From positions 427,862,001-427,926,000 of the forward strand of contig NW_027362771.1 of the NCBI RefSeq assembly GCF_046119375.1: a stretch of 64,000 bases of DNA, read 5' to 3'. Source of the stretch: Phyllobates terribilis (taxonomy: Eukaryota). The notes beneath the pieces were generated by a model. The model made no database searches. It worked only from the letters and a program-made list of their open reading frames with translations, and had not been told where the DNA came from. Position numbers and translations under genes: made by a program. Below, piece by piece: positions 17,834 to 57,559 of this stretch. Within the stretch, counting starts at the first letter, position 1. The number at the start of each line of letters is the position of its first letter.

Positions 17834-18190
17834 TCCTGCTCCGCCCTTCTGGCTTTGCTGGACTTCATTGTATATCTACTTTCTAGCTAGCCTGTGCTCT
17901 GTATCTAACTCTGTTAGTTTGCTTGGTCTACGGACCTCTATGTTCTATCTATTTTGTTTGTTCGTCTGTCTGCTACTATTTCTGTTAGGAGGTGTCCCAT
18001 ATTCCTCCCAGTCCTTAGTACTTGTAGGGATTCCCTCCCCACATCTATAGGTCTCCGTACAGACTAGATTAGGACTTTAGCAGGTCTGATCGCAGGATCA
18101 GGTTCCCTGTTACATCGTAGGGATTCAGCTGAGTCCTATAGTAGGGACAGATCTCCTCTCTTTCCTTAGCTTTGGTAGCAGAACTTAACA

Positions 18191-18201
18191 GTAAGTCCAG
18201 C
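18191..18201 (+). promoter_or_regulatory. Non-tRNA primer-binding site (self-priming type)
   Basis: GTAAGTCCAGC directly follows the 5' LTR and lacks TGG. AAGTCCAGC is the reverse complement of LTR 17857-17865. Confidence 0.7.
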
Positions 18202-18244
18202 CTGCAAATTCTCTAAGGAAAGATTTTTTTTTTTTTGTTCCATC

Positions 18245-21200: not shown

Positions 21201-22312
21201 CTGCTGCGGGGTTGCTTTGTCCTTTGGAGGTCCCCAGTGCTCCTTGGACACATTTGGCTATGGACTTTATAACTGACCTTCCCCCCTCTGAGGGTTTTAC
21301 TGTCATCTGGGTGGTCGTGGACCGTTTTAGCAAGATGTGTCACTTGGTTCCCTTCGTCAAACTGCCCTGCGCTAAAACTCTCGCTAAGGCCTTTGTCAAG
21401 GAAATTGTCAGACTTCATGGCGTTCCTACTGACATTGTTTCTGATAGGGGTCCTCAGTTCGTGGCTCGTTTTTGGCGTGCCTTTTGTGACAGGTTGGGAA
21501 TTCATTTGTCGTTTTCGTCCGGATATCATCCTGAATCTAATGGCCAGACAGAAAGGAAAAACCAGGATGTTGAGCAGTTCTTGCGTTGTTTTGTGGCAGA
21601 CAATCAAGAGGGGTGGTCTGAGTTTCTGCCACTTGCCGAATTTGCTCTGAACAATCATACATCTTCTTCTGCTGGTTGTTCGCCTTTTTTTTGTTGTTCT
21701 GGGAGACATCCGTCGTTTGGGTCGTTCTCCATGTTGGGATCTGCCGTGCCTGAGGAGGAGAATTTTTCCGGTGATTTGGAAAGAGTTTGGACGGATGTGC
21801 GTGGTAATCTTCAGGAGGCCAACAGAAAATCTAAAGACTACTTTGATAGGAAACGACAGGAGGTTTTGTTCGCTGTTGGTGACATGGTTTGGTTGTCCTC
21901 TAGGAATCTGCGGTTGAGGATTCCTTCTAAGAAATTGGGTCCCAAGTTTGTAGGGCCCTTTAAGGTGCTTCAGGTTGTCAACCAATCTGCTGTTAGGTTG
22001 GAGGTTCCTACCTCCTGGAGAATTAATCCGGTCTTTCATGTCTCTCTGTTAAAAAAAGCTGTTGTGTCGGATGGTGACGCCTCTGCCTCTGTTCCTCCGG
22101 TGGTGGAGGACGGGGAATATGAAATTTCTCGCATCCTTGACTCTAGACGGTATAGAGGTAGTTTGCAGTATCTTGTGGCCTGGAAAGGTTTCGGACCCGA
22201 GGATAACTCTTGGGTGAGGTCAGATGATGTTTCCGCGTCCAGACTTATCAGAGCGTTTCACAGGAGATTTCCTGATAAGCCTGGTCCTAGGGGATCCGGA
22301 GGATCCTCTTAG
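18245..22312 (+). CDS. Intact single-ORF Gag-Pol polyprotein (gag, CCHC knuckle, protease, RT, RNase H, integrase, chromodomain), 1355 aa
   Basis: CFYCGKSGHLIKGC; VFVDCGS; VYLDDIL; VEVDASS; H..GH..C..C; MDF/SDRG/QTERKN (DDE); YEISRILDSR..QYLVAWKGFGPEDNSW. Confidence 0.96.
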   Translation: MVSVQDLAKHLQGLSLEVAELRQYVSNCPGAYFLEPKVCLPDLFFGEHREFFSFKNACLLYFRLRPKSSGDESQRVGFIMSLLRKEPQEWAFSLQPSDTCFRSVDSFFSALGLLYDDPDRVASAETELRRLKQGSGNVEKYCTHFRRWSTQTGWNDSALKSLFLAGLSERVKDLLIAYPTPEDLQQAMQLAIRVDRRLRARVNESKSSAMSVSGYDNVCTNSGEPMEIGSVAPRSQEKDRRFSEGLCFYCGKSGHLIKGCELRMKKEKKMVSHARIACLNSKGIFLAASTIAQEKLMEFRVFVDCGSTLNVIDGGFVEKLNLKPEPLSSPIALVSVDGSPLKNITLKVSEFPLTINGVHHEKLDLVVLNNLPSPVILGLPWLKFHNPVLDWSTSEIKSWSHKCYDKCCNGRIAALDRGELPIPIQDFWRVFSEKESQVLPPHRDYDCSIEFVPGATLPKSRLFNLTIPERKALEEYIQTSLAAGHIRPSKSPVAVGFFFVKKKDGGLRPCLDFREINKITVRNPYPLPLIPDLFNQLLGAKWFSKIDLKGAYNLLRMKEGDEWKTAFNTPVGHFENLVMPFGLTNAPAFFQNLINDILRPLIGKNVVVYLDDILIYSPDLESHWQSVREVLQLLMDNSLFAKLEKCEFAVQRISFLGYIISSKGFEMDPVKVQAVQEWPRPIGLKSIQRFLGFANYYRKFIKIFSSIVKPLTDLTRKGADAVQWSSEAIEAFVYLKEKFTSAPILMQPDVTRPFLVEVDASSVGVGAVLSQDNGDGLHPCAFFSKKFSETELNYDIGNRELLAIKLAFEHWRHFLEGAEFPVQVLTDHKNLIYLDAAKRLNARQARWALFFSRFNFSVTYIPGTKNVKADALSRSFSPIVGAEKEENILQEGVVIAALDSVLEDEILKAQENAPSNTPHGRLFVPGTFRRDLFVECHESRLAGHPGISETKRLVGRSFWWPGWQKEVIKWVRQCTICARSKSSHTPAAGLLCPLEVPSAPWTHLAMDFITDLPPSEGFTVIWVVVDRFSKMCHLVPFVKLPCAKTLAKAFVKEIVRLHGVPTDIVSDRGPQFVARFWRAFCDRLGIHLSFSSGYHPESNGQTERKNQDVEQFLRCFVADNQEGWSEFLPLAEFALNNHTSSSAGCSPFFCCSGRHPSFGSFSMLGSAVPEEENFSGDLERVWTDVRGNLQEANRKSKDYFDRKRQEVLFAVGDMVWLSSRNLRLRIPSKKLGPKFVGPFKVLQVVNQSAVRLEVPTSWRINPVFHVSLLKKAVVSDGDASASVPPVVEDGEYEISRILDSRRYRGSLQYLVAWKGFGPEDNSWVRSDDVSASRLIRAFHRRFPDKPGPRGSGGSS

Positions 22313-28039: not shown

Positions 28040-29017
28040 TTAATGTGAGAGAGTGAACTGTGATAGCAGCAGGAGAGCATTAGGACCCTGTGAGTTTTGC
28101 CTTGCTGAGCTCAGAGCAGGGGCAGATCAGGAGACCCTGTGTGCTGAGGGTGTCTGCTGTGTGAGATTCTGGATGGGGCTTCTGAGAACTGTGAGGACTG
28201 AACTGCAACAAGACTTTCTCTCTACAAGCTTTCCTGTGGGGGTTGATAACCCCTTGCCCTGGTGAAGCTGTGTCCCTGCTTAAGGACGAGTGCTGAGCTG
28301 GGGAAAGCTGTGTGGCTCTTTGGAGTTTTGTGGAAGTCCATGCTGAGTGACTGTGAGAGGAGAGAAGGGGTCCGGTGCCATTCACATTGAGAAGATACTG
28401 ACAAGCCTTGTGAAGAGTTCTTCCCAGACCTTAACCTGAGGCTACAGGACTAAAGTCCCCGGCGTGTGGGCTCGGCATCGGCCGACAAGACAAGGAACCT
28501 TTGCTGTTTTTGTGAACTTTGCTTTTTATTTGGCGCCAAAGTTTTACCGGGACTAGCTGCAGCTACCGAGATAAACAGGCCTGTGATAGACGACATCTTA
28601 GGTTAACGGTACCGTAACTTTAAGATACCCGGGTATCCCTATACTAGGGGAATAAGAGCAATTGGTATAGTTTCATGCATTGTTATTGTTAATAGTGGAA
28701 GGCTTGTACTCAGTGTGCCATCTCAGGGGTCCCTATAGAACACCCTCACTAGATTGACACAGTGTTTAGGTAAAATTGTTCCAGATCTTTAGAATAATTC
28801 ACATAAACTGGAAACCTTGAGATTGGCACATGGATTTCAGCTTTTGCCGATTGTGTGTATTTAGTAGAGACAGTCTCCCAAGGTAGAACCTGAGACTGAT
28901 TGCAATACTGAATTTTAGTTTAATCCCCGTTTTAGTAAAGAAAGTGTTGTTTATTTCTGTCTCTGTCTCAGTTTATGACTCACTGGATCTCTCTCGGACC
29001 TCCGGTCATTACCTTTT

Positions 29018-29035
29018 TGGCATAGTCGGCAGGAT
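29018..29035 (+). promoter_or_regulatory. Primer-binding site complementary to tRNA-Ser
   Basis: TGGCATAGTCGGCAGGAT versus TGGCGTAGTCGGCAGGAT, the complement of the vertebrate tRNA-Ser 3' end as recalled (17/18). Confidence 0.8.
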
Positions 29036-29989
29036 CCAGTGCTTGTCATGGACAGAGGCGAGGGAAGAAATGACTCTGCCGCACCAGCAGCCCCCCCGCT
29101 GGTAGCGGAACCCCTGGCAGCCGCAGCGACTCTGGGAGGATATGTGCCGGTAGGAGCTTTACTCCAGCACATGCCGAAATACGACGAGCGTAACATGCCA
29201 TTGCAGGAGTGGGCTGAGAGGGTCCGGAGTCTTCTGCGTATGTGTAATCTGGCCCCCGCATTATGTCCAGAGTCAGAGAGGAGCACGTTAGAGAAAATTT
29301 TGGAGCTGTTAGAGGGGAGTTCGGGAGGCCGGGCTCTTGTGGCCCAGCTTCGTTCCTTGTTTTTTAATCGGCCCCAAAGGGAATGTGAGACCTTGATGCA
29401 GTACTCGAATACATTGCAGGAAACGTTTAATGAGGTGCAGCAACTAGACCCAGGGTCCATGGGGGCATTCCGAGAGGTAGACCACTTGCTCCGGGATCAA
29501 TTCATAACAGGGTTAGCCAATAAACTCCTTCGAGACAAACTGATGGAGATGACCCAAGCTTCCCGGAATTATCCTTCTGGCAGATTTATCGGGACGCAGT
29601 GGAAAGGGAGGAGGAGTCTACTCTGGTGGTCGAGGGGGCAGTGGATAGTGCACAGCTGGAGGGAGGTCAGGCGCCAGTTTCAGGAGGGGGAGGACTGGTA
29701 TACGTTGTACAGGCTCTGCGTGCCGAACTGAAGGAGCTAAAGCTAGAGGTGTCTAAACTCAGAGCTGGGCCGGCCCCTACTCTCACGGAAGGGCTACCCA
29801 TCGCGTCCTCTGGAATGGTGGTTCCGCAGTCTGCCAGGTCGTCCTCCTCGAATGATTCTGTGTGACCCACGTGGAAGCCCTACCCTGGGAGATGGGGGAC
29901 TCGGAGTCGGGTCCTTTTGATGTAGAGATGGGGTGTAACCGTGGCCCGGACCCAACCCGTGCCCAGGGTCGTCACACTAAAACAAAAGA

Positions 29990-31217
29990 GATTGTACGGG
30001 CTTATCCGGGTTGAGTGGCTGATCTCGACTACGCCACCTGTGGCACCTGGTGAAGGCCACCAGCGCCGCTGCAGTCCGCTGAGGCATGGTGTTATGGCAG
30101 CTGTAGTTGTTACTACTCCCCACAGGCGGAGTAAGGCCTCAGGGCAGAGGGACAGGATGACGCGGGTAGTAGTCTAGGAGGTCTGGTGCTGCGTAGCGCG
30201 GTGTAGTGCAGAACAAAGAGTCCAGAGGCCATAGGGGTTAACTTCCAGGGTTTTTACTCACGTTGCAGAGTACAGCTGCAAGGCTTCTCCCTGCTCCACG
30301 CGGAGTTCTGCGGTCACCAGAGACGGGGGGGGGGGGGTCCGACAACCTCCGAGTAAGTCCAGCGTTCAATCAGGACCCCGCACCAGAGTGTTCCTAGACT
30401 TCAGACTGGGTACTTTCCTGTCTGTGTGTGTGTGTAAATAGGCCGGGTCTCCCTCTGAACTCCTCTCAGAAAAAGGATACGGGTGGCAGCTCCGCTCCTT
30501 CCGTTACCCGGTGGGATCCTCAGGGCCTACTGGGCTTTCCCGACCAGGACGTGGAGTAGCAAGGTCGGGTGTCTGGGGTCGGTACCCCTCTTGCAGCCGG
30601 AATCCCTCTGAATATATCAGGTTGGTGAGGACAGGTGGCGTATACCGCTCCGTCTGCATCCTCCCTGGGATCCATTTGCTGGGGAGCTACACTCCTGAGC
30701 TCCGGGCCTTCTTGGTCATGGTCCTTGACCGGGTTGAGACATTCATTATCTGCAACCTGCCCCTCGACCCAAGGCCAAGGTACGAGGGCTGTGTCTCCAT
30801 CCGATGCAGGCCCACACAGGATCCGCTTACAGGGTAGGAGGTCACAGTAGAACAGTCAAAGAACCATCATGGAGCAAACTGAAGGACAGGCTGACGGACA
30901 GAAAGGACCATTAGAACAGAAAAGGACCTAGAACCAAGATGGCTGCGTATTAAATATTAAATTTTAAGTGTCACTAAAATGTGAGTCCCCCTCCCTCACC
31001 CACTAAATGGTTCCCCTAGCTCTTGGTTCCCCAGTCTCCCTGTAACCAGGAGGGCAGCACCTAGTGCATTCTAGCCCCCTCTGGTGGGAGAAGTGTGGTG
31101 TTGGATGTGAAGGAAGGATCCTGACCATCGCACTGTTCTTACCTCAGAGGAGGAACACTACACTCCATTAGAGAAGTGCAGCATCCCTGTGGCGGTCGAA
31201 CCCTCAGGGGCGCCACA
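29990..31217 (-). mobile_element. Antisense LTR (30039-31217) plus PBS and ~40 nt of leader from another Gypsy, inserted in the gag of element C
   Basis: On the minus strand TGTGGCGCCCC...GGTGCCACA is followed by GG-TGGCGTAGTCG (30026-30036). Confidence 0.8.
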
Positions 31218-34200
31218 ATTCAAGTTCTCGTCCACGAGGATCAGTCACCTGCTGGAGGTGTGGGCGTCGGGGACACATCTCCCGATACTGCCGGATGTCT
31301 GCAGCCCCGGAGCCTCCTTCGTCGGCATTAAACTCCCAGCCGCTGCCATGAGAGAGCGAGCACCAGCGGCCCACCCCCCACAAAGCCCTCGATGGGAAGA
31401 ACAAGATTTGCTCGCATGCAGTCCAGTGCTGGATGCAGAGTTTGAAGGGGGGAAGAAGAGATGCTTGGTTGACACAGGATCCGAATGTACCATAATGCCC
31501 TTAGAGGTATACGAAAGGCACTTCAGTCAACTAGTGGTTCCCGAGGACGGCCGAGTGATACGACTTACCGCCGCTAAAAATGGCCAACTGATGGTGAAGG
31601 GGATCGTGTGGATGCAACTGAAAATGTTTGGTCTAGAGCTGGGTCAGAAAGGGATAGTGCTGGTGGACCACCCTCCTAGAAGAGGGATTGAGGTGACGCT
31701 CGGAATGAACGTTCTGTGAGATTTAAATCATCAGATGTATGCCAGTGAGGGACCCGATACTTGGTTTGTGCTACCCACCATCAACCCACACAGATAATGT
31801 TACACCGTCTAGTGCTGAGCTGCGATCTTCTGAAGAGTGCGGTCCCTGGGGGCCGGGTGGGTCTGGTCTGAGTGCCATCGCGGACCACGATCTAGCTAGC
31901 GCCCCGACAAGAAGAACTCTTAATGCTACCAGTGGGGGCTGCGCAGAGACTGAATGGGCTTGAAGTACTACTCGAGCCAACCCCAGAGAAGTCCTCGTTC
32001 GCCAAGGCGCATGTGGCCCGGTCTCTGGCGATTGTGAAGAATGGACGGGTGCCGGTCAGATGCATCAACGTTCTAGATGAGGTTGTTAAAATTCCTGCTG
32101 GGACCATTCTGGCTGAACTGTTCGTGACAGCAGGGAAAGTGCCTGACAAGGCAGTGTTCGAACTGCGCCCAGATGAACAGTCTTCCCCTGGACATACGCA
32201 GTCGAAGTAGGCCGGACCAAACCTCCTACTGAAGAATGGAATGGTCGTGTGATCATGGACCAGATGGGATTGGATCAGGAGAAACTGACCCCCGTGCAAT
32301 TGGAGCAGCTGGAGAGCGTCTTGTGGGAACATCAAGAGACCTTTTTGCGACATGCGGAGGATTTTGGTTGTTCCCGGATGATTGAGCATGAGATCGCCAT
32401 GGGGGATACCCCTCCTATTAGGGAACGTTATCGTCAAATTCCCCCAACGCTCTATCAAGAGGTGAAGCACATGGTGGCCGGTATGCTTGACAACCAAGTG
32501 ATCCGAGAGAGCCAGAGCCCCTGGGCGGGCCCTGTGGTCTTGGTGCGGAAGAAGGATGGGACCCTTCGGTTTTGTGTGGACTATTGCAAATTGAATGCTC
32601 ACACGGTGCGGGACGCATATCCATTACCTCGCATAGAAGAGTCTCTGTCGGCATTGGGTTGGGCCAAATATTTCTTGACGTTGGATTTAGCAACTGGCTA
32701 TTGGCAGGTACCAATGGCTGAAAAAGATCGGGCCAAGATGGCGTTTGTCCTACCAATGGGGCTCTATGAATTCAACCGGATGCCCTTCTAACGCCCCGGG
32801 AACTTTCCAACGCCTGATGGAACATTGCTTAGGCGATCTGAATTTTGAATCAGTCCTGATATATCTAGATGAAGACCATCTTGAGAAGTTATGTCAAGTT
32901 CTCCGGTGGCTCAGTTGTTATGGCCTAAAACTAAAACCAAAGAAGTGCCAACTGTTACAGAGTCAGATTGAGTATTTAGGTCACGTGGTGACTCCGGACG
33001 GGGTGCAGCCCGTGACCAGTAAGGTCATGGTCGTGCAGGAGTGACCACCTCCCCATACCCTGCGAGAGGTTCGGGCCTTCTTGGGTTTAGCGTGGTACTA
33101 TTGGCGATTTGTACCTAAGTTTTCACAAGTAGTGAGTCCCCTGAATGAGCTTTTAAGAGGGATGGCACAAGGCCCCCAAAATCGCCCCATCCCATGGGGA
33201 CCCCAGCAGCAAAAGGCATTTGAGGAGGTGAAGGCCACCCTAACGAGTGCTCCTTGTTGGCGTATGCCCAGGTTTGATTCCCCTTTCCTGTTATACACCG
33301 ATGGCAGTCTGCATGGGCTGGGGGCGGTACTAGCACAAGTGCAGGATGGTCAGGAGCGAGTAATCGCCTATGGCAGCAGGTCTTTAAGAGACACTGAAAG
33401 CAACCCAGCTAACTACAGCTCGTTTCGCCTAGAGCTACTGGCCCTGGTGTGGGCGATGACGGAACGCTTTGCCGAGTATTTAACAGGAGCTAAGGTGCTA
33501 GTCATGACTGATAATAACCCTCTGGCTCACATAGAAAACGCAAAACTGGGAGCGTTGGAGCAGCGGTAGGTTGCTCGTCTTGCTAAGTTTAACTATCAAA
33601 TTAAGTTTCGCTCTGGGTGGGAAAACGGAAATGCGGATGCACTCTCAAGGGTGCCCCTTGGGTCCTCGGGGGAAAATGTTGATGACCAGCTTGAGGACAC
33701 TGAAACCCCTGACTTGGGCAGGTACCTATCTTCCTAAGTGTGGTACATTCGAGTGGGGTGGCGTAAGGGATGCCGTGCGTTCTGGGAAAAACACCCTCGG
33801 ATTGGGCAAAAGACCAGAACGATTGCCCTGACATTGCACTAGTGCGCAATTGGGTACAAAAAGGGGTGTGGCCGCGTGCAGAGGAAAAGGCCCAGCTGTC
33901 CGCTGAAGGAATGAAGCTACTGCGACAGTGGGATACGTTGTGTGTGTAACAGGGCCTCTTGTACTGTAAGGTGTACCTGCCATCTGAGCTGCAGCACGGG
34001 GACCAGCTAGTAATCCCTATGGGGATGGGTCCGGTGGTCGCTCGAGAGGCGCATAAGAAGAGGGCCCACTTTGGGAGTGAAAAGACACTCCAGTGGCTAC
34101 AGCGAGTCCTCTATTGTCCTGAATTGGGGGGATGGTGACAGAGTCGTGTCGGCAGTGTCGGGTCTGTAAGAGCCCTGAGCAGCGGGCGCCCACGCAACCT

Positions 34201-37200
34201 ATTAAGACTTCATGATTGACTATGTCTTGATAGGATACTCAACGTCTTGGTATTCCTATTGCTTGGTAATGACAGACCACTTCACCAATTATGCTGTAGC
34301 AGTGCCGACAAGAGATCAGACGGCGGAGTCTGCGGCTGAGGCCGTGTGTCAACATTTCATCCAGGTGTTTGGGTGTCCGCAAAGAATACACTCGGATCAA
34401 GGGGCATGTTTTCAGGGGGCATTGATGAAGGAGCTGTACCAGCTGTATGGTATCGCACCGTCGAGAACAACACCTTACCATCCCCAAGGTAACGGAGCTT
34501 GTGAGCGCTTTAATCGGACTCTGTTGCAGATGTTGAGGACGTTAGAGGGTAAACAGCAGGTACGCTGGCCTGAGTATCTCCCCGTATTTATGTGGGCCTA
34601 CAATAATAGAGTGCACAGCACTACTGGCTACTCACCACACTTGTTGATGTTCGGGAGGCCAGGGCGGGACATTGAGGATTTGAGCATGCCAGGTCCCTCC
34701 TCCAATCCCTCTCGGACCGCATCAGAATGGGTTCGAGAACACCGGCGGCGATTAAGGGTGGTGCATCAGGTGGTGGGTGATCGACTCAGTCAGGTGACCA
34801 ATAGGGACGCGCGTCCCGTGCAAGCCGAGCCTTTCTCCCCGGGGGATAGAGCGTTGGTGAGAATCAAACGACGGTCCGGAAAGCTGAGTGAATGATGGGA
34901 GGTGACTCTGTACCTGGTAAAAAAGCGGGTGAGCCCTGAGATTCCAGTCTACGAGGTCGAGCCGGTGGGGACAAGGGGACCAACCCGTAATCTTCATTGT
35001 AACATGCTACAACGGTGCTGGTTTGAAGATGCGGTCCCCGTTTCTACGGAACCACAGGCCGTGTCCCGAGGGGTGGGCATTCCTAATGCTCTTGAATTTG
35101 ATGGTGAGTCTGCCTCTGCGCCTGCTTACTTGCCTCCTGCAATCAATCTGTCCCCTTGTGTAGAGAGTGTTGAGAATGTGGTATGTCCTTCAGAGAACAG
35201 GGAATCAGGTCAGTTACCTGACCTGGATGATGTGGCACAGGGCGCCACACCTCAGGAGGGAGAAGGCTCATTGGCTCCCTCTGATGATACCGCTGAAGAG
35301 ACTTCTGCCCCCTCGGGGGCCGAGTCTGTTGGGGTGGGTCTCAGGAGAACTACTCGAGCTACGGCGGGTATACCCCCACAATGCTATACACAAGACGACT
35401 TTGAGTGGGGAGGTGTGTCGAGGACACCAATCTCTAATGGGGTGGCATGTGAGAGTGTGAACCGTGATAGCAGCAGGAGAGCATTAGGACCCTGTGAGTT
35501 TTGCCTGGCTGAGCTCAGAGCAGGGGCAGATCAGGAGACCCTGTGTGTTTTGAGGGTGTCTGCTGTGTGAGACTCTGGACGGGGCATCTGAGGAGAACTG
35601 TGAGGACTGAACTGCAACAAGACTCTCTCTCTACAAGCTTTCCTGTGGGGGTTGATAACCCCTGGCCCTGGTGAAGCTGTGTCCCTGCTTAAGAACGAGT
35701 GCTGAGCTGGGGAAAGCTGTGTGGCTCTTTGGAGTCTTGTGGAAGTCCATGCTGAGTGACTGCGAGAGGAGAGAAGGGGTTCGGTGCCATTCACATTGAG
35801 AGGCTACTGACAAGCCTTGTGAAGAGTTCTTCCCAGACCTTAACCTGAGGCTACAGGACTAAAGTCCCCAGCGTGTGGGCTTGGCATCGGCCTACAAGAC
35901 AAGGAACCTTTGCTGTTTTTGTGAACGTTGCTTTTTATTTGGCGCAAAAGTTTTCCCGGGACTAGCTGCAGCTACTGAGATTCACAGGCCTGTGATAGAC
36001 CACATCTGAGGTTAATGGTACCATAACTTTAAGATACCTGGGTATCCCTATACTAGGGGAATAAGAGCAATTGGTATAGTGTCATGTATTGTTATTGTTA
36101 ATAGTAGTAGGATTGTACTCAATGTGCCATCTCAGGGGTCCCTATAGAACACCCTCACTAGATTGACACAGTGTTTAGGTAAAATTGTTCCAGATCTTTA
36201 GAATAATTCACATAAACTGGAAACCTTGAGATTGGCACATTGATTTCAGCTTTTGCTGATTGTGTGTATTTAGTAGAGACAGTGTCCTAGGTAGAACCTG
36301 AGACTGATTCATGCAATACTGAATTTTAGACTAATCCCTGTCTTAGTAAAGAAAGTGTTGTTTATTTCTGTCTCTGTCTTAGTTTGTGACTCACTGGATC
36401 TCTCTCGGACCTCCGGTCATTACATTCACAACAAATTTCTGGATTTTTATCGCTGTAATATGGGATCACGTCTGATGATGGAAAAGATATGGCTGTATTC
36501 TGCAGTGCTAACAAGCCAATGGAGCAGTAAAATGGGGTACTCTGGATTGCTTTTTAATCAAATAATCAGGATTAATATAAAAAAAAAATTAGCCCTGGCC
36601 CCTGATATCTTGGGCTATGTCTACGGATATCTGTAACAGCAGGAGCAGACAGAACGTGCAATGAACCCTCTTATGCTGTATACACTGCCACAAACCCTGC
36701 CTGCCTGCCTAACTCCTGCTATCAGTCTTAATATATGCAGCTGGATTAGTCCTCAGAAGGTCTGCTAGTTCAGATGGATATATATATACTCCTGGAGTAC
36801 CACTACCTATATGTAACTATTACACCGCCAATTCTGTCCCTCACACAGCAGCACCCCTCCCTACTCTGCCTGATTCCGGAGTGACTGTGATGAGCCTAGC
36901 GTCACCAGGTCTGATATAGACCTGACGACGCTGTGCGGCCAGCCTATCACTGTAATGCCACAACCAACATGGCTACGGAATTACAGTGTGTGGAAGACAA
37001 TCCCTGCATGTTCACTGGCTCTCTAAAGAGTGCCAAACATTCAGGGCAAGGACCCGGGCTCCCGCCCGAGAAACCCGGAAATACTCGCTGGCATGACGAG
37101 CAGGGTGATGATCGGGCGAGTACCGAGCAGTGGCGAGCACCCTTGCTCATCACTAATCTTAACCTTACAGAGAACAGGAGTAGAAAGCTTTGCTAAATAA

Positions 37201-42758: not shown

Positions 42759-42882
42759 GGTAGTGTGTGTATTTACTTTTCCTCTCCCATTTGGTTGGTC
42801 GCTCCTACTGTTCACTTGTTTTCTACTTTGTTGTTTTGTAATAGAAGGAGAAAACTCTTTCAGAGAATCAGTGCGAGATGTA

Positions 42883-44512
42883 CAGTACAGACCAAAAGTT
42901 TGGACACACCTTCTCATTTAAAGATTTTTCTGTATTTTCATGACTATGAAAATTGTACATTCACACTGAAGGCATCAAAACTATGAATTAACACATGTGG
43001 AATTATATACTTAACAAAAAAGTGTGAAACAACTGAAAATATGTCTTATATTCTAGGTTCTTCAAAGTAGCCACCTTTTGCTTTGATGACTGCTTTGCAC
43101 ACTCTTGGCATTCTCTTGATGAGCTTCAAGAGGTAGTCACCGGAATTGGTTTTCACTTCACAGGTGTGCCCTGTCAGGTTTAATAAGTGGGATTTCTTGC
43201 CTTATAAATGGGGTTGGGACCATCAGTTGTGTTGTGCAGAAGTCTGGTGGATACACAGCTGATAGTTCTACTGAATAGACTGTTAGAATTTGTATTATGG
43301 CAAGAAAAAAGCAGCTAAGTAAAGAAAAACAAGTGGCCATCATTACTTTAAGAAATGAAGGTCAGTCAGTGCGAAAAATTGGGAAAACTTTGAAAGTGTC
43401 CCCAAGTGCAGTTGCAAAAACCATCAAGCGCTACAAAGAAACTGGCTCACATGAGGACCGCCCCAGGAAAGGAAGACCAAGAGTCACCTCTGCTTCTGAG
43501 GATAAGTTTATCCGAGTCACCAGCCTCAGAAATCGCAGGTTAACAGCAGCTCAGATTGGAGACCAGGTCAATGCCACACAGAGTTCTAGCAGCAGACACA
43601 TCTCTTCAACAGCAGTTAAGAGGAGACTTTGTGCAGCAGGCCTTCATGGTAAAATAGCTGCTAGGAAACCACTGCTAAGGACAGGCAACAAGCAGAAGAG
43701 ACTTGTTTGGGCTAAAGAACACAAGGAATGGACATTAGACCAGTGGAAATCTGTGCTTTGGTCTGATGAGTCCAAATTTGAGATCTTTGGTTCCAACCAC
43801 CGTGTCTTTGTGCGATGCAGAAAAGGTGAACGGATGGACTCTACATGCCTGGTTCCCACCGTGAAGCATGGAGGAGGAGGTGTGATGGTGTGGGGGTGCT
43901 TTGCTGGTGACACTGTTGGGGATTTATTCAAAATTGAAGGCATACTGAACCAGCATGGCTACCACAGCATCTTGCAGCGGCATGCTATTCCATCCGGTTT
44001 GCGTTTAGTTGGACCATCATTTATTTTTCAACAGGACAATGACCCCAAACACACCTCCAGGCTGTGTAAGGGCTATTTGACCAAGAAGGAGAGTGATGGG
44101 GTGCTACACCAGATGACCTGGCCTCCACAGTCACCAGACCTGAACCCAATCGAGATGGTTTGGGGTGAGCTGGACCGCAGAGTGAAGGCAAAAGGGCCAA
44201 CAAGTGCTAAGCATCTCTGGGAACTCCTTCAAGATTGTTGGAAGACCATTTCTGGTGACTACCTCTTGAGGCTCATCAAGAGAATGCCAAGAGTGTGCAA
44301 AGCCGTCATCAAAGCAAAAGGTGGCTACTTTGAAGAACCTAGAATATAAGACATATTTTCAGTTGTTTCACACTTTTTTGTTAAGTATATAATTCCACAT
44401 GTGTTAATTCATAGTTTTGATGCCTTCAGTGTGAATGTACAATTTTTATAGTCATGAAAATACAGAAAAATCTTTAAATGAGAAGGTGTGTACAAACTTT
44501 TGGTCTGTACTG
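42883..44512 (+). mobile_element. Tc1-like transposon, DD38E (Intruder-type), structurally complete
   Basis: 263-bp TIRs (42883-43145, 44250-44512) and TA TSD (42881-82, 44513-14). Confidence 0.96.
43297..44349 (+). CDS. Intact DD38E Tc1-family transposase, 350 aa
   Basis: Paired-like HTH, GRPR, WSDES, QQDNDPKH, then 38 residues to the E of PDLNPIE. No stops or frameshifts. Confidence 0.95.
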   Translation: MARKKQLSKEKQVAIITLRNEGQSVRKIGKTLKVSPSAVAKTIKRYKETGSHEDRPRKGRPRVTSASEDKFIRVTSLRNRRLTAAQIGDQVNATQSSSSRHISSTAVKRRLCAAGLHGKIAARKPLLRTGNKQKRLVWAKEHKEWTLDQWKSVLWSDESKFEIFGSNHRVFVRCRKGERMDSTCLVPTVKHGGGGVMVWGCFAGDTVGDLFKIEGILNQHGYHSILQRHAIPSGLRLVGPSFIFQQDNDPKHTSRLCKGYLTKKESDGVLHQMTWPPQSPDLNPIEMVWGELDRRVKAKGPTSAKHLWELLQDCWKTISGDYLLRLIKRMPRVCKAVIKAKGGYFEEPRI

Positions 44513-44514
44513 TA

Positions 44515-45153
44515 AGCAATAAGGAGAAAGAGTGCCATCTGTTGAGCATTTCAAGTTTGGATGCTGGACCCGGTCAGGTGACCTCCAGCAGAGAATTTCA
44601 AAATTTAACGGTCAAGGGCGCAGTGCCTGAGGTGATTTCGGTGCCAGACACAGGAAGAGACGTGACGCAGCCCGGATGCGCTGAAGGAACCAGCGAGAGA
44701 GACCGGGGTGAGAGACACGTAAGGCAAGACGGGTGGCTGCTGGTGAACGAGTGCGGGATTCAGCGCAGCGGTCCCTCAGGTGTCACGGCTACGGAAGAGG
44801 ACCGGGATTTGGATATGACATTAAGGAAATGTTCAAGACCCACCTACCCACGACGTGGTAAACAGCCCCAATTGACAGGACAAAGAGAGGATAGAAACGA
44901 GTCGTGCCGCAAAGATCACGTCAGCAAAAGCCGACGAGTGTCATCACTGATCAGGGCTGTCACTTCGACCGCTCCCTCATGGTACAGGGAACAATCAGGT
45001 TTAGGGTATCAGGTTGGGAGAGGGACGGGTGAGCTGGAACAAGCCAAACGGGATCTAATTGACTTTGTCAGAAAAATACTTAAAGGCCTAGCGGGAATAA
45101 CCGGAGACCCCCCGCTAGGGCCATTTGCAAAACCGGTGGACTTCAGTGATTAA
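44515..45153 (+). CDS. Unknown LTR-internal ORF (213 codons here, plus 15 open codons at 42838-42882 before the Tc1 insertion)
   Basis: Stop-free frame. Peptide blocks are shared with a diverged copy at 55950-56588 (-), with several synonymous differences. No recognised domain and no ATG near the start. Confidence 0.5.
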   Translation, partial: SNKEKECHLLSISSLDAGPGQVTSSREFQNLTVKGAVPEVISVPDTGRDVTQPGCAEGTSERDRGERHVRQDGWLLVNECGIQRSGPSGVTATEEDRDLDMTLRKCSRPTYPRRGKQPQLTGQREDRNESCRKDHVSKSRRVSSLIRAVTSTAPSWYREQSGLGYQVGRGTGELEQAKRDLIDFVRKILKGLAGITGDPPLGPFAKPVDFSD

Positions 45154-45312
45154 TGCCATATTTGCGCTAGATACAATATTTTAGAGAAGGATTTTATTGC
45201 TATTGTTATTGCTATTGTGATGTATTGTGTGTTATTGCTATTGTTATTGCTATTATGATATTTTTCTCATTACTAACCCCTGTTGCAATCCCTTTCAGCT
45301 TTGTTTAATATA

Positions 45313-46881
45313 CACTGTGTTCCAAATTATTATGCAAATAATATTTTCTCAGATTTTCCCAAATTACCTATATGAATTGCAGTCATTGTAATTTTCCAGT
45401 CAAATAACTATTAGAGTACAATTGAAAGGTTTTTGTACAAACTGCCTATGATAACAGTATATTTAAAAAAAAATAAAAAACTCAAACTGCACTCAAAATG
45501 CATGTTCCAAATTATTATGCACAGCAGAGTTTTCAACCTTTTCATTTTAATAAAGAACCAAAAAATGGTCATTTTTGAAATTATAAGCATTAGCAGGTTA
45601 TTACAAACTGAAATCAAACAGTTTTCAACTCAAAACTTTATTCTAGGTGATGTAACATTTGCACATAGGACCCCTTGTTCGAAAGGAGCTTCTGAACTCT
45701 CTCGTCCATTGAATTTGTCAGGTTTTGGATGGTTTCTGCTTCAATTGTTTTGCATGAGGACAGAATACCCTCCCAGAGCTGTTGCTTAGATGTGAACTGC
45801 CTCCCGCCATCATAGACACTCCTTTTGATGATGCTCCAGAGGTTCTCAATGGGGTTGAGGTCAGGAGAGCATGGGGGCCACACCATAAGTTTGTCCCCTT
45901 TTATGCCCATAGCAGCCAGAGATGCAGATGTGTTATGTGCAGCATGAGACGGGGCATTATCATGCATGAAAATGATCTTGCTGCGGAATGCACGGTTCTT
46001 TTTCTTGAACCATGGAAGGAAGTACTGTTTGAGAAACTCAACATACATCATGGAGTTCATCTTTACCCCTTCAGGGATCCTAAAAGGGCCGACAATCTCT
46101 CTCCCCATGATTCCAGTCCAAAACATTACTCCACCTCCTCCTTGTTAGTGCCGTAGCCGTGTTTGCATAGGGTGTCCATCAACCAGCCATCCTCCACTCC
46201 ATCCATCTGGACCATCGAGATCATTTCATGCATGATAATGCCCCGTCTCATGCTGCACATAACACATCTGCATCTCTGGCTGCTATGGGCATAAAAGGGG
46301 ACAAACTTATGGTGTGGCACCCATGCTCCCCTGACCTCAACCCCATTGAGAAACTCTGGAGCATCATCAAAAGGAGTGTCTATGATGGCGGGAGGCAGTT
46401 CACATCTAAGCAACAGCTCTGGGAGGGTATTCTGTCCTCATGCAAAACAATTAAAGCAGAAACCATCCAAAACCTGACAAATTCAATGGACGAGAGAGTT
46501 CAGAAGCTCCTTTCGAACAAGGGGTCCTATGTGCAAATGTTACATCACCTAGAATAAAGTTTTGAGTTGAAAACTGTTTTATTTCAGTTTGTTATAACCT
46601 GCTAATGCTTATAATTTCAAAAATGACCATTTTTTTGTTCTTTATTAAAATGAAAAGGTTGAAAACTCTGCTGTGCATAATAATTTGGAACATGCATTTT
46701 GAGTGCAGTTTGAGGTTTGTTTTTTTTTTAAATATAATGTTATCATAGGCAGTTTGCACAAAAACCTTTCAAATGTACTCTAATAGTTATTTGACTGGAA
46801 AATTACAATGACTGCAATTCATATAGGCAATTTGGGAAAATCTTAGAAAATATTATTTGCATAATAATTTGGAACACAGTG
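45313..46881. mobile_element. Foldback non-autonomous DD37E (TRT-type) derivative made of two inverted copies of the element's 3' part
   Basis: Arms 45313-45978 and 46218-46881 are near-perfect reverse complements, each encoding HDNAPSH..PDLNPIE..VQMLHHLE. TA TSD at 45311-12 and 46882-83. Confidence 0.93.
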
Positions 46882-47829
46882 TATATAGATATATAAATGG
46901 TTATTTATAGCTATTTGACTGCCCTCATTTTGTGACTCTGCGCGGTGCATTCTGACATCCGCATTACAGTTTCATGTCCATTTTACATGATTGTAGTTTC
47001 CTTTCATTCCGTTTGTCTGGTTTGTGCTATGCGTTTCATGTTGGTCCCATACCTCCTTGAGGAAGAAATAGTTCAGTGTGCACTCAGGAGCATAGTAAGG
47101 TTAGCGAACCAAGGCCTCTCTACCTTTAAGAAAACCCCTGGGACAGGGATAGTGAGGGCCCCTCTCCCTTACTTCAGACCAGCACATTGTGACACTGCCC
47201 ATATAACGGTGCAGATAAATAAGAGACAAACAATAATAGCAATAACATACTATATCCACATTGTGCAAGAGATACAATCCACAAAGAGGCTGGTAAAATT
47301 CCACCACACCCGAGGCATGTTATGCAGAGACTGCTTCGGCCAGGGGCGGTGTGGTATCGGAGTGTAAGGTATTTAACCCCTTTACCCCCGAAGATGGTTT
47401 GCACATTAATGACTAGGTTAATTTTTCCAATTCTGACCACTGTCAATTTATGAAAAAATAACTCTGGAACGCTTCAACGAATCCCACTGATTCTGAGATT
47501 GTTTTTACATGAGAGCAATTTTGGAACCAACATTTTTTTTGTTAGGAAGTTATAAGGGTTAAAAGTTGACCATGATTTTTCATTTTTCCAACAAAATTTA
47601 CAAAACCATTTTTTTATGGACCACATCACATTTGAAGTGACTTTGAGGGGCTTCGTGACAGAAAATACCCCCAAAATGATACCATTCTAAAAACTGCACC
47701 CCTCAAGGTGCTCAAAACCACATTCAAAAAATTTATTAATCCTTCAGGTGCTTCACAGGAATTTTTGGAATGCGGAAGAAAACAATTAACATTTAACTTT
47801 TTTTCACAAAATGTTACTTTAGACCCACA

Positions 47830-53362: not shown

Positions 53363-54206
53363 TAAAACACACTTTTTTTTTTTGCAAAGACTAGTTTTTG
53401 CAATAATTTTTCCATATTTCGGCCGACAGATTCATGTGAGGGCTTGTTTTTTGCTGGACAAATTGACATTTTTATTGGTACCATTTTCGGGCAAATTAAA
53501 TTTTTTGATCACTTTCTATTCTGATTTTTGGTAGGCAGAATAAACAAAAACCAACAATTCAGGAATTGTTTTTTTTTATTTTTTATGCCGTTCCGTGTGT
53601 GGTAAAATTGAGAAGGCAGCTTTATTCATTGGGTGGTCAGTATGTTTACAGCAATACTACATTTATATACTTTTTTTTATGTTTTGGCGCTTTTACACAA
53701 TAAAAAATATTTTATAGAAAAAATATATTTTTTTTGCATCGCTTTATTCTGAGAGCAATACCTTTTCTATTTTTCAGCTGATGGAGCTGTATGGTGGCTT
53801 TTTTTTTGCAGGACAAAATAACGTTTTTAGCGGTACCATTTTTATATACATTCTTTTTCTATCACGTTTTATTCCATTTTTTTTTGGGCGTATGATGATA
53901 AAGCATCGTGTTTTGCTTAGTTTCTTATTTACTTCTTTTACCGTGTTCACTAAAGGGGTAAACTAGTGGGACAGTTTTATAGGTCAGGACGTTGCGATAC
54001 CAGATATGTGTACTTTTATTGTTTTGTTTTTATTCCATAATAATATTTATTTATGGGTACAGTATATTTTTAGTTTTTTGGGATTTGTAATGCAGGTGTC
54101 AGAAATGCAACACGCAGAGACACGAAGTGAGGGCAGTCAGAGATGTGTAAAAACAATTTATATATATATTTATATAAAAATACAGTAATATATATATATA
54201 TATATA

Positions 54207-55762
54207 CACTGTGTGCAGAATTATTAGGCAAATGAGTATTTTGCTCACATGATACTTTTTATACATGTTGTCCTACTCCAAGCTGCATAGGCTTGAGAGC
54301 CAACTACCAATTAAGTAAATCTGGTGATGTGCATCTCTGTAATGAAGAGGGGTGTTGACTAATGACATCAACACCCTATATAAGGTGTGCTTAATTATTA
54401 GGCAACTTCCTTTCCTTTGGCAAAATGGGTCAGAAGAGAGATTTGACAGGCTCTAAAAAGTCCAAAATTGTGAGATGTCTTGCAGAGGGATGCAGCAGTC
54501 TTGAAATTTCCTAACTTTTGAAGCGTGATCACCGAACAATCAAGCGTTTCATGGCAAACAAGCCAACAGGGTCGCAAGAAGCATGTTGGCCAAAAAAGGC
54601 GCAAAATAACTGCCCATGAATTGAGGAAAATCAAGCGTGAAGCTGCAAAGATGCCATTCGCCACCAGTTTTGCCATATTTCAGAGCTGCAACGTTACTGG
54701 AGTATCAAAAAGCACAAGGTGTGCGATACTCAGGGACATGGCCAAGGTAAGGAAGGCTGAAAAACGACCATCTTTGAACAAGAAACATAAGATAAAATGT
54801 CAAGAATGGGCCAAGAAATATCTTAAGACTGATTTTTCAAAGGTTTTATGGACTGATGAAATGAGTGACTCTTGATGGGCCAGATGGATGGGCCAGAGGC
54901 TGGATCAGTAAAGGGCAGAGAGCTCCACTCCGACTCAGAAGCCAGCAAGGTGGAGGTGGGGTACTGGTATGGGCTGGTATCATCAAAGATGAACTTGTGG
55001 GACCTTTTCGGGTTGAGGATGGAGTGAAGCTCAACTCCCAGACCTACTGCCAGTTTCTGGAAGACAAGTTCTTCAAGCAGTGGTACAGGAAGAAGTCGGT
55101 ATTGTTCAAGAAAAACATGATTTTCATGCAGGACAATGCTCCATCACATGCATCCAACTACTCCACAGCGTGGCTGGCCTGTAAAGGTCTAAAAGAAGAA
55201 AAAATAATGACATGGCCCCCTTGTTCACCTGATCTGAACCCCATAGAGAACCTGTGGTCCATCATAAAATGTGAGATCTACAGGGAGGGAAAACAGTACA
55301 CCTCTCGGAACAGTGTCTGGGAGGCTGTGGTTGCTGCTGCACGCAATGTTGAGCGAAAGCAGAACAAGCAACTGACAGAATCTATAGATGGAAGGCTGTT
55401 GAGTGTCATCATAAAGAAAGGTGGCTATGCTGATCACTAATTTTTGGGGTTTTTGTTTTTGCATGTCAGACATGTTTATTTCTAAATTTTGGTTTGATAT
55501 TGGTTTACCTGGTGAAAATAAACAAATGAGATGGGATTATATTTGGTTTTTATTAAGTTGCCTAATAATTCTGCACAGTAATAGTTACCTGCACAAACAG
55601 ATATCCTCCTAAGATAGCCAAATCTAAAAAAACCCCACTCCAACTTCCAAAAATATTAAGTTTGGATACTTATGAGCCTTTTGGGTTGATTGAGAATATA
55701 GTTGTTGATCAATAATAAAAATAATCCTCTAAAATACAACTTGCCTAATAATTCTGCACACA

Positions 55763-55765
<3 letters not shown>
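54207..55765 (+). mobile_element. Tc1-like transposon, DD37E (TRT-type), degenerate transposase 54425-55440
   Basis: Same TIR and protein as 8286-9847, in the opposite orientation. Contains a stop and a frameshift. (TA)n on both sides. Confidence 0.92.

Positions 55766-55808
<43 letters not shown>
55764..55808. repeat. (TA)n microsatellite
   Basis: About 22 TA units abutting the Tc1 end. Confidence 0.95.
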
Positions 55809-55810
<2 letters not shown>

Positions 55811-57559
55811 CCAGGCTTTAAACAAGGGGTTAGTAACAAGGATGAACAGGTAATTTACAATAACAATGAACAATCTCCCAAAATAGTGTGATGCGCCCTG
55901 GCGTGGGAGTCACCACAGCAGTTCTTTAACTCTGTAAATGGTCCTAGCAGGGGTCACCGGTTATTCCCGCTAGGCCGCAAGTCTTTTTCTAACTAAGTCA
56001 ATTAAATCTAGTTTGGCTCTTTCCACTTTGCCCATCCCCCTCCCAACCTGACATTCTAAACCCCACTGCCCACGGTACCGTGGATGATCATTTGACGTGT
56101 CGGCCCTGTTCAGCGATGTAGCTCCTCTGTTTCTCCTGGCGTGACCCCCCTGACGCAGTTCTCTCTTATCTCCTCTCTGCTTGGCCATTGGAAGCGGTCT
56201 CTCGCGCCTTGAATAGCGGGGTCCAGACCTTGTCAGTTGATGGGCAATGTCGGGTACGGTGAAGTCAGTACCACAAGCAGATCCCGGCTCTCCTCAGTGA
56301 CCACGGTACTTGGGGGATCCAGCATTTGTTCACCAGTGTCCGCCTGTGCTGCCTCGTAGGTCTCTGCCTCCAACCTGTCAGGCTGGTTTCCGGAGCTCAT
56401 CCCTCGCGCATCTCCTTCTCCTTGCTGCTTGGCGCCGAAATCACCTCAGGTTTGGCGAGCTCGACCATTATGTTTAAAAACTCCTCACTGGACGTCACCT
56501 GACCGGGTCTCACATTCAAATCTGTTCCCCCTTCAACATTTCTAAGGCATCTTGATTCCGTTTGATTGCAGTCAACCAGCAGATAACAATAAGGCTTTTT
56601 GACTTCTATTACAGATTATTTTTTCATTTTTTTAAATATTTTTACAATTTTTTTTTCACTTTTTTTTTTTCACTTTTCGACACTTTTACGCTTTATCCCA
56701 CTATGGGACTTTCATTTTTTGCAGGCTGATCACTTGTATAGCATAGGGATGCAGAAGCATCCCTGTTCTATGCAAGCTGTCAGCTCTGCACTGGCACAGG
56801 TTAGTTAGATCGTGCACTGCGCATGATCTAACTAACTTCCTGATGCCTGGTGACCTGGATGTCGTCATGACGACATCGGGTCACCATGGTAACGATAGCG
56901 CGAGGTCTCCATTCCAAGGTAAGAGGGGCAGCTTTTCCTGTCCCTGCTCACGAAATGCTGTGATTGACTTCGATCGCAGCATTTCAGGCGTTAATGTGCC
57001 GGAAGCGGTGCAGGACCACTTCTGGCACAGAGTACCGGGTGTCAGAATCAACTGACACCTGGAGGCGATCGCGCCCACACGACCTATGTGCGGGCGTGAT
57101 CGGTGAGGTGTAATAATAATAATAATAATAAGTACCTGGTCATTAAGGTGCAGGTCACAGAGACATATTATTACACCTCACGTCAAAAAAGGGTCAAGTG
57201 GGAATCATCTAATGGGAAACAATAATTAATTGATCGACACCTGTATGTTAAAGACGTTCACGCCCACTCCAATGTGTCCAGCCAATACATACCCATATAG
57301 ATATGAAACGTGGGAACGCCCGCTGTGTATGTCACACACCACCGTGATAGAAAACAGTAAGCAGTGCGATAAAGTCCCTATACCAGAAGTGCGTGTACAG
57401 AATTAGCATAAGCAGGTCACCACTCATGTGACCCAGTACGACCAAATAATGGAAGGCATGTCACTCATCATGTGACCAAATATAGTCACGCGGTAGGGAA
57501 CATGTCACAGATCACAGGACCAAACATGGCCACATGATAACAGCGACCCCTTTGAAGAG

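Follow-up and report, generated by a model that had tools for sequence, protein, structure and literature searches.

Coding frames that lie over U3 and are thus duplicated in both LTRs are known from HIV nef and MMTV sag; in these env-bearing retroviruses, each of the two is a gene of its own and has a separate start. Among LTR retrotransposons, a pol frame running into the 3' LTR is described for CRM group A, centromeric retrotransposons of plants (PMC3059260, PMC3605345), and the accessible text on a pufferfish V-clade1 Gypsy element of 5.6 kb gives a pol of 1119 aa that partly overlaps a 538-bp LTR (PMC11117352). Barthez1 and Barthez2 are larger, with 7.6-7.9 kb, LTRs of 1.0-1.1 kb, a gag of 355-359 aa and a pol of 1339-1394 aa, and in the same partial sources the PNMA genes are listed as Barthez-derived (PMC11117352, PMC3670739). 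The integrase of Ty1 carries a disordered linker of ~230 residues, the end of which is formed by a short host-binding segment and a nuclear localisation signal (PMC10050235).

In the window (the whole analysed stretch of 64,000 nucleotides) a long open frame is located inside a solo LTR. It was originally predicted to encode an accessory protein comparable to Nef or Sag, or the tail of a protein starting in the interior of the full-length element. The first reading did not hold: the frame belongs to pol and follows on reverse transcriptase (RT), RNase H and integrase without a break. The second was borne out by two-LTR copies, which place the frame start in pol. The length of this run-on is unusual, the pol-into-LTR layout itself is not. 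Our literature search resulted in nothing on this family or on a vertebrate Gypsy pol overlap of ~220 codons, although Repbase and subscription journals were outside the search and may already record it.

The solo LTR and its Tc1 insertions

The element at 42837..46968 on the forward strand is a solo LTR of Ty3/Gypsy lineage A, matching copies of ~930 bp by 90-93%; the same sequence forms both LTRs in two-LTR copies. Its termini are TGTAAT at the 5'-end and ATTACA at the 3'-end, and it is flanked by 4-bp GTTT target-site duplications at 42833..42836 and 46969..46972 (both +). Two Tc1 elements interrupt it, each with a TA duplication. The first (42883..44512, +) has 274-bp inverted repeats and a stop-free transposase frame of 350 codons at 43297-44349, and splits the pol-tail frame. 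The second (45313..46881, strand not assigned) sits in the TA run of the LTR and is mostly a fold-back with 509-bp arms that are 98% complementary. Without both inserts the LTR measures 46+798+85 = 929 bp; ends, flanks and rejoined length as originally predicted were all confirmed. The first Tc1 was missing from 29 out of 29 other fetched loci (including six that duplicate two loci), where the first two LTR pieces are contiguous.

The LTR-encoded part of the frame starts with 15 codons at 42838..42882 (+), which lack a start codon and prolong the upstream pol frame where the LTR is a 3' copy, and continues at 44515..45153 (+) with 212 codons (44515-45150) and a stop (45151-45153). Both pieces are in register, and their 227 codons are an arithmetic sum of separate translations. 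The predicted ORF of ~227 codons is thus open to 45153 in the window copy, but the family stop of lineage A falls at 215 codons. The final 12 codons are private to the window copy: alone among 27 matched copies, it has a C run near 45108-45113 that is longer by one base, so that the frame reads on. The most constrained block, with a predicted amphipathic helix at its end, spans 44998..45075 (+). Located 77 bases ahead of the LTR end, TATAAA at 46892..46897 (+) is likely the TATA box; all 9 LTRs examined, among which lineages A-E are each represented, have TATA(A/T)A at a distance of 76-81 bases from their end. The start site would then be downstream of the whole frame, which would lie entirely in U3. 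Since reverse transcription duplicates U3, a start-less copy of the frame is present in every 5' LTR and solo LTR. The lineage A solo LTR in the window is an inert, broken remnant.

A second solo LTR, of lineage B, is encoded on the reverse strand at 54086..56613. It is flanked by an AATC duplication, and its TA run contains a separate Tc1 insert. This copy had been recognized on the correct strand, but with an end at 56588. Its pol-tail frame is disrupted by stops and frameshifts. The peptide blocks compared between the two copies were as originally quoted; instead of about a dozen synonymous differences, 9 synonymous and 16 non-synonymous differences were counted in 52 codons.

Continuity with pol and family assignment

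The full-length element is a Ty3/Gypsy LTR retrotransposon (Metaviridae) of about 7.0 kb with LTRs of 930-1000 bp, about 70% of which are coding, a gag of ~335 codons and ~1390 pol codons ahead of the LTR. Its pol has the order protease-RT-RNase H-integrase, with a DTGS protease-type motif upstream that was read by eye. The gag matched zf-CCHC (E 1.4e-6) and weakly Retrotrans_gag; a weak match to PNMA (E 0.002-0.009) was below the cut-off. A primer binding site (PBS) directly follows the 5' LTR and a purine tract directly precedes the 3' LTR. The primer may be tRNA-Ser. A pattern combining a T-loop with the PBS complement had 74 genomic matches, and among six loci read, ARAGORN reported one tRNA-Ala and Rfam none. 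The LTR pairs of two-LTR copies are 95.0-99.4% alike, and exact 4-bp duplications flank six such copies of lineages C and D (among 14 stretches) as well as the locus L036. Among named pols, that of Leptodactylus fuscus came closest, with 75% in RT. Lineage A copies were not regionally clustered on contig C1 (29 hits over 32-1222 Mb, KS p = 0.58), in a test that covered best hits only and old copies.

In two-LTR copies the pol frame crosses the polypurine tract into the 3' LTR. In lineage C, the youngest, the integrase catalytic motif is in frame with the LTR stretch at 17 out of 20 junctions, about half of which are segmental duplicates; 12 of the 20 have no stop in between, and all 20 have 225 LTR codons. 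A single stop-free frame of 1274 codons comprises RVT_1 (61-221), RNase H (290-421), integrase H2C2 (563-619) and rve (633-729), and terminates 225 codons into the LTR. In one lineage B copy, 551 codons are open between the integrase core and the stop in the LTR. In lineage A, pol and the LTR stretch are in frame, with point stops only. The spacing from the integrase motif to the LTR is 168 nt in 12 out of 17 A and B copies. The frame is thus almost certainly the C-terminal end of the pol of this high-copy element.

Pol also runs into the LTR in two other families of the same genome, for 41 and ~120-150 codons. A two-LTR Gypsy element of another family in the window, taken for comparison (28044..36424, +; LTRs 95.3% alike), has a pol frame that enters its 3' LTR (35448-36424) for 41 codons. 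The LTR run-on peptide of a sister family had no tblastn match to the present tail. Another family sharing the PBS stops within 14-15 codons of the LTR start in 22 out of 22 LTRs read. The copies of this early-stop family look short and may be non-autonomous.

Selection on the frame and its residues

In all five LTR lineages, A to E, the frame is open for 215-232 codons, and within it indels between lineages are triplets only. Just past the helix lies a one-base shift, owing to which the stop of B, D and E comes about 8 codons earlier than that of A and C. No stop was common to at least three copies of any one lineage. Neutral simulations (net tree length 0.72 substitutions/site) left all five lineages open in 0 out of 3000 runs. 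The frame is kept open by selection, in agreement with the original claim.

Most tail residues drift near-neutrally, and the last ~50 are under moderate constraint. Over the whole LTR stretch the five lineages gave a net dN/dS of 0.89 (0.72-1.19), near the value of 1 that had been named as evidence against an encoded protein; over the last ~50 codons it was 0.53 (0.28-0.83) in the pol frame, not near 1, with 0.96-2.09 in five control frames, for blocks that were picked after conservation had been seen. The narrowest end block alone gave 0.50 (0.23-1.16, overlapping 1) at kappa 4.1. Elsewhere in pol, dN/dS was 0.02 for RT, 0.04 for RNase H, 0.06 for integrase and 0.25 even for the internal linker.

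Between lineages A and B, dN/dS was 0.46 with a protein-guided alignment and no weighting, and 0.75 with transition weight and a nucleotide alignment; the latter method was adopted. The first block had a low ratio of 0.34 between A and B, which disappeared when five lineages were compared (0.94). The comparison of shared with private variants revealed no clear synonymous excess within A (15:28 vs 71:155) and B (9:21 vs 60:151). The notion that the LTR evolves faster than the interior was also discarded, with an A-C synonymous distance of 0.59 in the LTR and 0.62-0.69 in RT and integrase. The likeness of A and B around integrase is due to recombination, and both lineages are mosaic. The tail provides a clean natural case in which selection keeps a frame open while residues drift, in dual-use promoter DNA.

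Putative function of the tail and comparison with known systems

The predicted fold is disordered and ends in one helix (197-217), which has the best confidence with a pLDDT of about 68. This terminal helix is clearly amphipathic in lineages A, C and D and weakly so in B and E. A single-sequence fold of the integrase end plus tail yielded nothing usable (pLDDT 33). The tail profile had no match among 1.84 billion protein representatives, and the tail had none in Pfam, chromodomain included, none in the PDB by sequence and no usable match in the ESM Atlas. Foldseek also returned no match, which with a low-confidence model is not meaningful. Within 5.8 billion proteins, lengths 303-965 gave none and lengths 966-2755 one match covering 23% of the query; for lengths 700-2230, 18 matches each covered at most half of the query. 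The tail profile scored none of these 18 related pol proteins, from which the tail is absent. They stop shortly past a shared RR..R...G.PP.RY-type motif.

On balance, we favor a reading in which the C-terminal 215-232 pol codons form a long disordered integrase tail, whose predicted terminal helix probably binds a host factor. Pol would be translated via a -1 gag/pol frameshift, and translation would pass the polypurine tract into the 3' LTR, adding these codons. The tail would stay attached to integrase, and the helix would serve nuclear entry or target choice. A protein-level job of the terminal helix seems rather probable, and the frame was likely kept open in five lineages because of it.

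A less probable but serious alternative is that the pol-tail peptide has no job and that openness matters at the RNA level. With a late stop the 3' UTR is shorter, and nonsense-mediated decay of the genomic RNA would be avoided, the end block being kept as promoter DNA. This predicts dN/dS near 1 over about 170 codons together with purged stops and frameshifts, as was observed; the varying run-on lengths of the families (41, ~120-150 and 215-232 codons), their unrelated peptides and the missing tail homologue in the databases searched also fit. However, the low ratio in the last ~50 codons is limited to the pol frame, and most ribosomes should not get past the stop of gag, some 5 kb upstream, which would leave a long 3' UTR anyway. 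The PBS-sharing family that stops early also speaks against it, as far as its copies are autonomous.

It is rather unlikely that the tail is made within pol and then released by the protease of the element to act separately as a small protein, functionally close to an accessory protein. The conserved integrase region does end in a strongly constrained motif-plus-helix (dN/dS 0.03), beyond which lie a basic stretch that varies (0.72) and then the LTR part, and related pols end nearby. Nevertheless, no cleavage site was identified, and the freed piece would be nearly unconstrained and without a fold.

A separate U3 accessory gene of the nef/sag type, translated from a separate start on an RNA that is spliced or initiated internally, is very improbable: position in U3 and a length of about 220 codons resemble nef and sag, but there is no stop between frame and integrase, no Met in the frame common to lineages A and B, and no env or other frame between integrase and LTR, where pol itself occupies the space, and the likely TATA box is downstream of the frame. 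A chance open frame, for which the GC content of 54% and the selection of this stretch for being open could be held, is practically dismissed by the neutral simulations, the many stops in the other frames of lineage A LTRs and the register with pol.

A supposed accessory gene is removed, and where solo LTRs of this clade contain long open frames, these are explained as pol run-on, which can mislead gene finders working on large amphibian genomes. Should the end helix indeed be a host-binding tether, it would provide a clue to nuclear entry and site choice of a prolific vertebrate Gypsy clade, on which our literature search found no study.

Unlike nef and sag, the present frame is the end of pol, without a separate ORF or its own start codon. 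CRM group A shares the extension of the polyprotein frame into the 3' LTR. These are plant chromoviruses, however, with a CR motif, a tRNA-Met primer and centromeric location, whereas our element is an animal non-chromovirus with a tail lacking a Pfam match and copies spread along contig C1. The pufferfish V-clade1 element likewise is a vertebrate Gypsy with pol reaching into the LTR, an overlap described as partial in the accessible text (PMC11117352). Barthez is of the same size class, and the weak PNMA match of our gag, below the cut-off, may be noted here; the available text of that paper reports no LTR overlap for Barthez, in contrast to the ~220 extra pol codons in the LTR here. The Ty1 tail is our working model, with the differences that Ty1 is a Copia element, that its tail is encoded within pol outside the LTR, and that its function is proven (PMC10050235). 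By analogy, we tentatively propose a vertebrate Gypsy clade with an LTR-encoded integrase tether, in which ~70% of the LTR would be both promoter DNA and code for a disordered arm of ~220 residues, with an end helix docking on a host chromatin or import factor. With the arm in U3, LTR-swapping recombination as in the A/B mosaic would then exchange promoter and tether jointly. In animals, such a tether would correspond to the CR motif of plants and to the Ty1 targeting segment.

LTR copies in the window and in the genome

Five related LTR lineages (A-E) of one Ty3/Gypsy element were distinguished. Lineage A includes the solo LTR at 42837-46968, which starts with TGTAAT, ends with ATTACA and has GTTT on each flank. 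Without its two Tc1 inserts (42883-44512 and 45313-46881, each with a TA duplication) it measures 929 bp, in agreement with the predicted TG..CA element of about 930 bp with an exact GTTT duplication. The first insert was absent from all 29 other fetched lineage-A loci; its terminal repeats (97% alike) and stop-free transposase frame of 350 codons indicate a recent insertion. The second has been converted to a fold-back (509-bp arms, 98% complementary) carrying the C-terminal half of the transposase in two copies of opposite direction. Tc1 elements insert preferentially in a TA run beside the LTR TATA motif, which different Tc1 families have struck independently at 45313-46881 and ~54206-55764 and in seven loci outside the window (L010, L016, L032, L033, L041, L044, L045).

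Lineage-A LTRs are numerous in the 10.6-Gb genome (1607 candidates at first pass, of which 40 were scored and 30 fetched). Lineage B, with its window copy at 54086-56613 (-), yielded 2701 candidates. The originally predicted ORF of about 227 codons exists in the window copy (15 + 212 codons), but lineage A generally has its stop at 215; an extra base near 45110 is confined to the window copy among 27 matched lineage-A copies. Instead of roughly a dozen synonymous differences in the two peptide blocks compared between the window copies, 9 synonymous and 16 non-synonymous differences were counted in 52 codons.

The LTR frame as the end of pol

A purine tract immediately precedes the LTR in ten lineage-A loci, and a primer-binding site (PBS) immediately follows it in two. 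The two-LTR element is ordered LTR, PBS, gag (~335 codons, including a CCHC knuckle), pol, purine tract, LTR. Relative to gag, whose end it overlaps, pol lies in the -1 frame, and GTTAAAC directly before the gag stop in this overlap (L036, L045, L052) is presumably a -1 frameshift site. Among the first 30 of 2017 genomic matches to the PBS pattern, lineages C, D and E, all with related LTRs, were recognised, along with members of two further families. Lineage C (~7.0 kb) is young, with LTR pairs 97.8-99.4% alike and exact 4-bp duplications. It also includes elements in tandem that have their middle LTR in common, and a partial LTR duplicated in tandem (L206, L213, L207). The RT of the element is 75% identical to a Leptodactylus protein; its dimensions, together with a weak PNMA match, hint at a possible membership of the Barthez lineage.

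In recovered two-LTR copies the frame continues from pol across the purine tract into the LTR. The LTR contributed 225 codons in all 20 lineage-C junctions, about half of which are segmental duplicates; the integrase catalytic motif lay in the same frame in 17, without an intervening stop in 12. One stop-free frame of 1274 codons spans RT, RNase H and integrase before terminating within the LTR. In lineage B, 551 codons are open between the integrase core and the LTR stop, and in lineage A the LTR stretch is in frame with pol, interrupted by point stops. All 14 long stretches analysed for two-LTR structure have breaks elsewhere or lack the interior. Hence, the LTR frame is the C-terminal end of pol: the predicted start in the internal region stands, whereas an accessory protein does not. 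No Met common to A and B was found in the LTR frame, and the stretch from integrase to the LTR contains no other frame. Since each of the 9 LTRs examined has a TATA(A/T)A 76-81 bases ahead of its end, the whole frame would fall upstream of the start site, so that a solo or 5' LTR would not express it.

Selection on the LTR frame

Codon rows were obtained for A/B from 34 of 73 starts in frame (two dropped for internal compensating shifts and another three because their 5' ends were damaged), C (9 of 9 once 11 duplicates had been removed), D (11 of 14) and E (13 of 24). Within A and B, dN/dS was about 1, as expected from decay after insertion. This within-lineage part was taken off to give net dN/dS across ten lineage pairs. 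Upstream of the LTR, with D and E represented by 2-3 rows only, net values were 0.02 (RT), 0.04 (RNase H), 0.06 (integrase), 0.17 (SH3-like), 0.25 (linker) and 0.03 (motif-plus-helix before the purine tract). The proposed comparison across copies gave a value near 1 over the whole LTR part (0.89; 0.72-1.19), with 1.32 in the N-terminal part, 0.94 in the first block and 0.94 in the middle, and a lower one in the last ~50 codons (0.53; 0.28-0.83). In five control frames the whole stretch scored 1.00-1.14 and its end 0.96-2.09. All these net values are rough counting estimates with codon bootstrap from non-independent pairs and blocks chosen after viewing. The synonymous distance separating A from B (L036-L055) was 0.33 for RT and 0.10 for integrase, fell to 0.02 over the linker and rose to 0.46 within the LTR; this mosaic points to recombination between the two lineages.

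On a tree with a net length of 0.72 substitutions per site, no stop was common to three copies of any one lineage, and all five lineages stayed open in 0 of 3000 neutral runs. Between-lineage indels in the frame are all triplets; a one-base shift occurs just beyond the final helix. The LTR frame must be read to its end, yet most of its residues hardly matter. The main rival explanation, set against the lower value of the last codons, is that a late stop shields the RNA against decay, with an inert peptide, which we consider unlikely.

Proposed role and comparison with known elements

AlphaFold models of 11 natural copies predicted disorder (mean pLDDT 46), with highest confidence at a helix at 197-217. 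The tail peptide had no relative in any of the libraries searched. Related pol proteins from elsewhere have an SH3-like domain, an acidic linker and an RR..R...G.PP.RY-type motif in common and end soon afterwards. The tail would be a long flexible extension of integrase whose short terminal helix acts as a binding segment, after the Ty1 model, and we regard this as rather probable. Its more specific form, with the helix as an LTR-encoded integrase tether, is less likely than not. In Ty1, according to the part of PMC10050235 considered, a disordered linker of ~230 residues precedes a host-binding segment of 16 residues, itself flanked by two localisation signals; the likeness lies in a long disordered linker and a short terminal binding segment, known in Ty1 and predicted here. 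Cleavage of this disordered tail as a separate small protein appears improbable, and a nef-like gene is scarcely credible for a frame continuous with integrase.

Near-identical copies are clustered at 150-300-kb spacing on three contigs (C8, 268-272 Mb; C11, 574-576 Mb; C7, 276 Mb), probably as large tandem segmental duplications. On contig C1 the copies showed no clustering, which gives no support to a centromere-type target.

A two-LTR Gypsy of another family at 28044-36424 (+) has LTRs 95.3% alike, flanks TTAA/TTCA, the same PBS type and a pol frame that continues for 41 codons inside the 3' LTR. For sister family F (L276-L283, ~745-bp LTR, 80% RT identity), 5 of the 6 junctions read have a run-on into the 3' LTR of 122-152 codons; the family F peptide did not match the lineage A-E tail. 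Family G (L116, L119, L121, L132, L139; ~1030-bp LTR) lacks a pol run-on where its LTR begins. The 3' part of this LTR is crossed, up to the LTR end, by a stop-free frame of about 100-200 codons that possibly continues into gag, and LTR pairs ~3.6 kb apart indicate that it is likely non-autonomous. Another element type, with a stop-free gag-pol frame of 1377 codons (18179-22312 (+)) and, by eye, a chromodomain-like end, is inserted in another Gypsy and also occurs inside L038.

Gypsy clades are active in frogs, as stated in portions of PMC4131045 and PMC11011659. The literature searched yielded no description of the lineage A-E family or of so long a pol-LTR overlap. A polyprotein frame reaching into the 3' LTR, as here, defines plant CRM group A elements in the relevant sections of PMC3059260 and PMC3605345; the CR motif is treated in part of PMC6317226. 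The pol-LTR overlap is also shared with pufferfish V-clade1, where it is partial (PMC11117352, in excerpt). The feature is real and its layout known; the length of the overlap is unusual.
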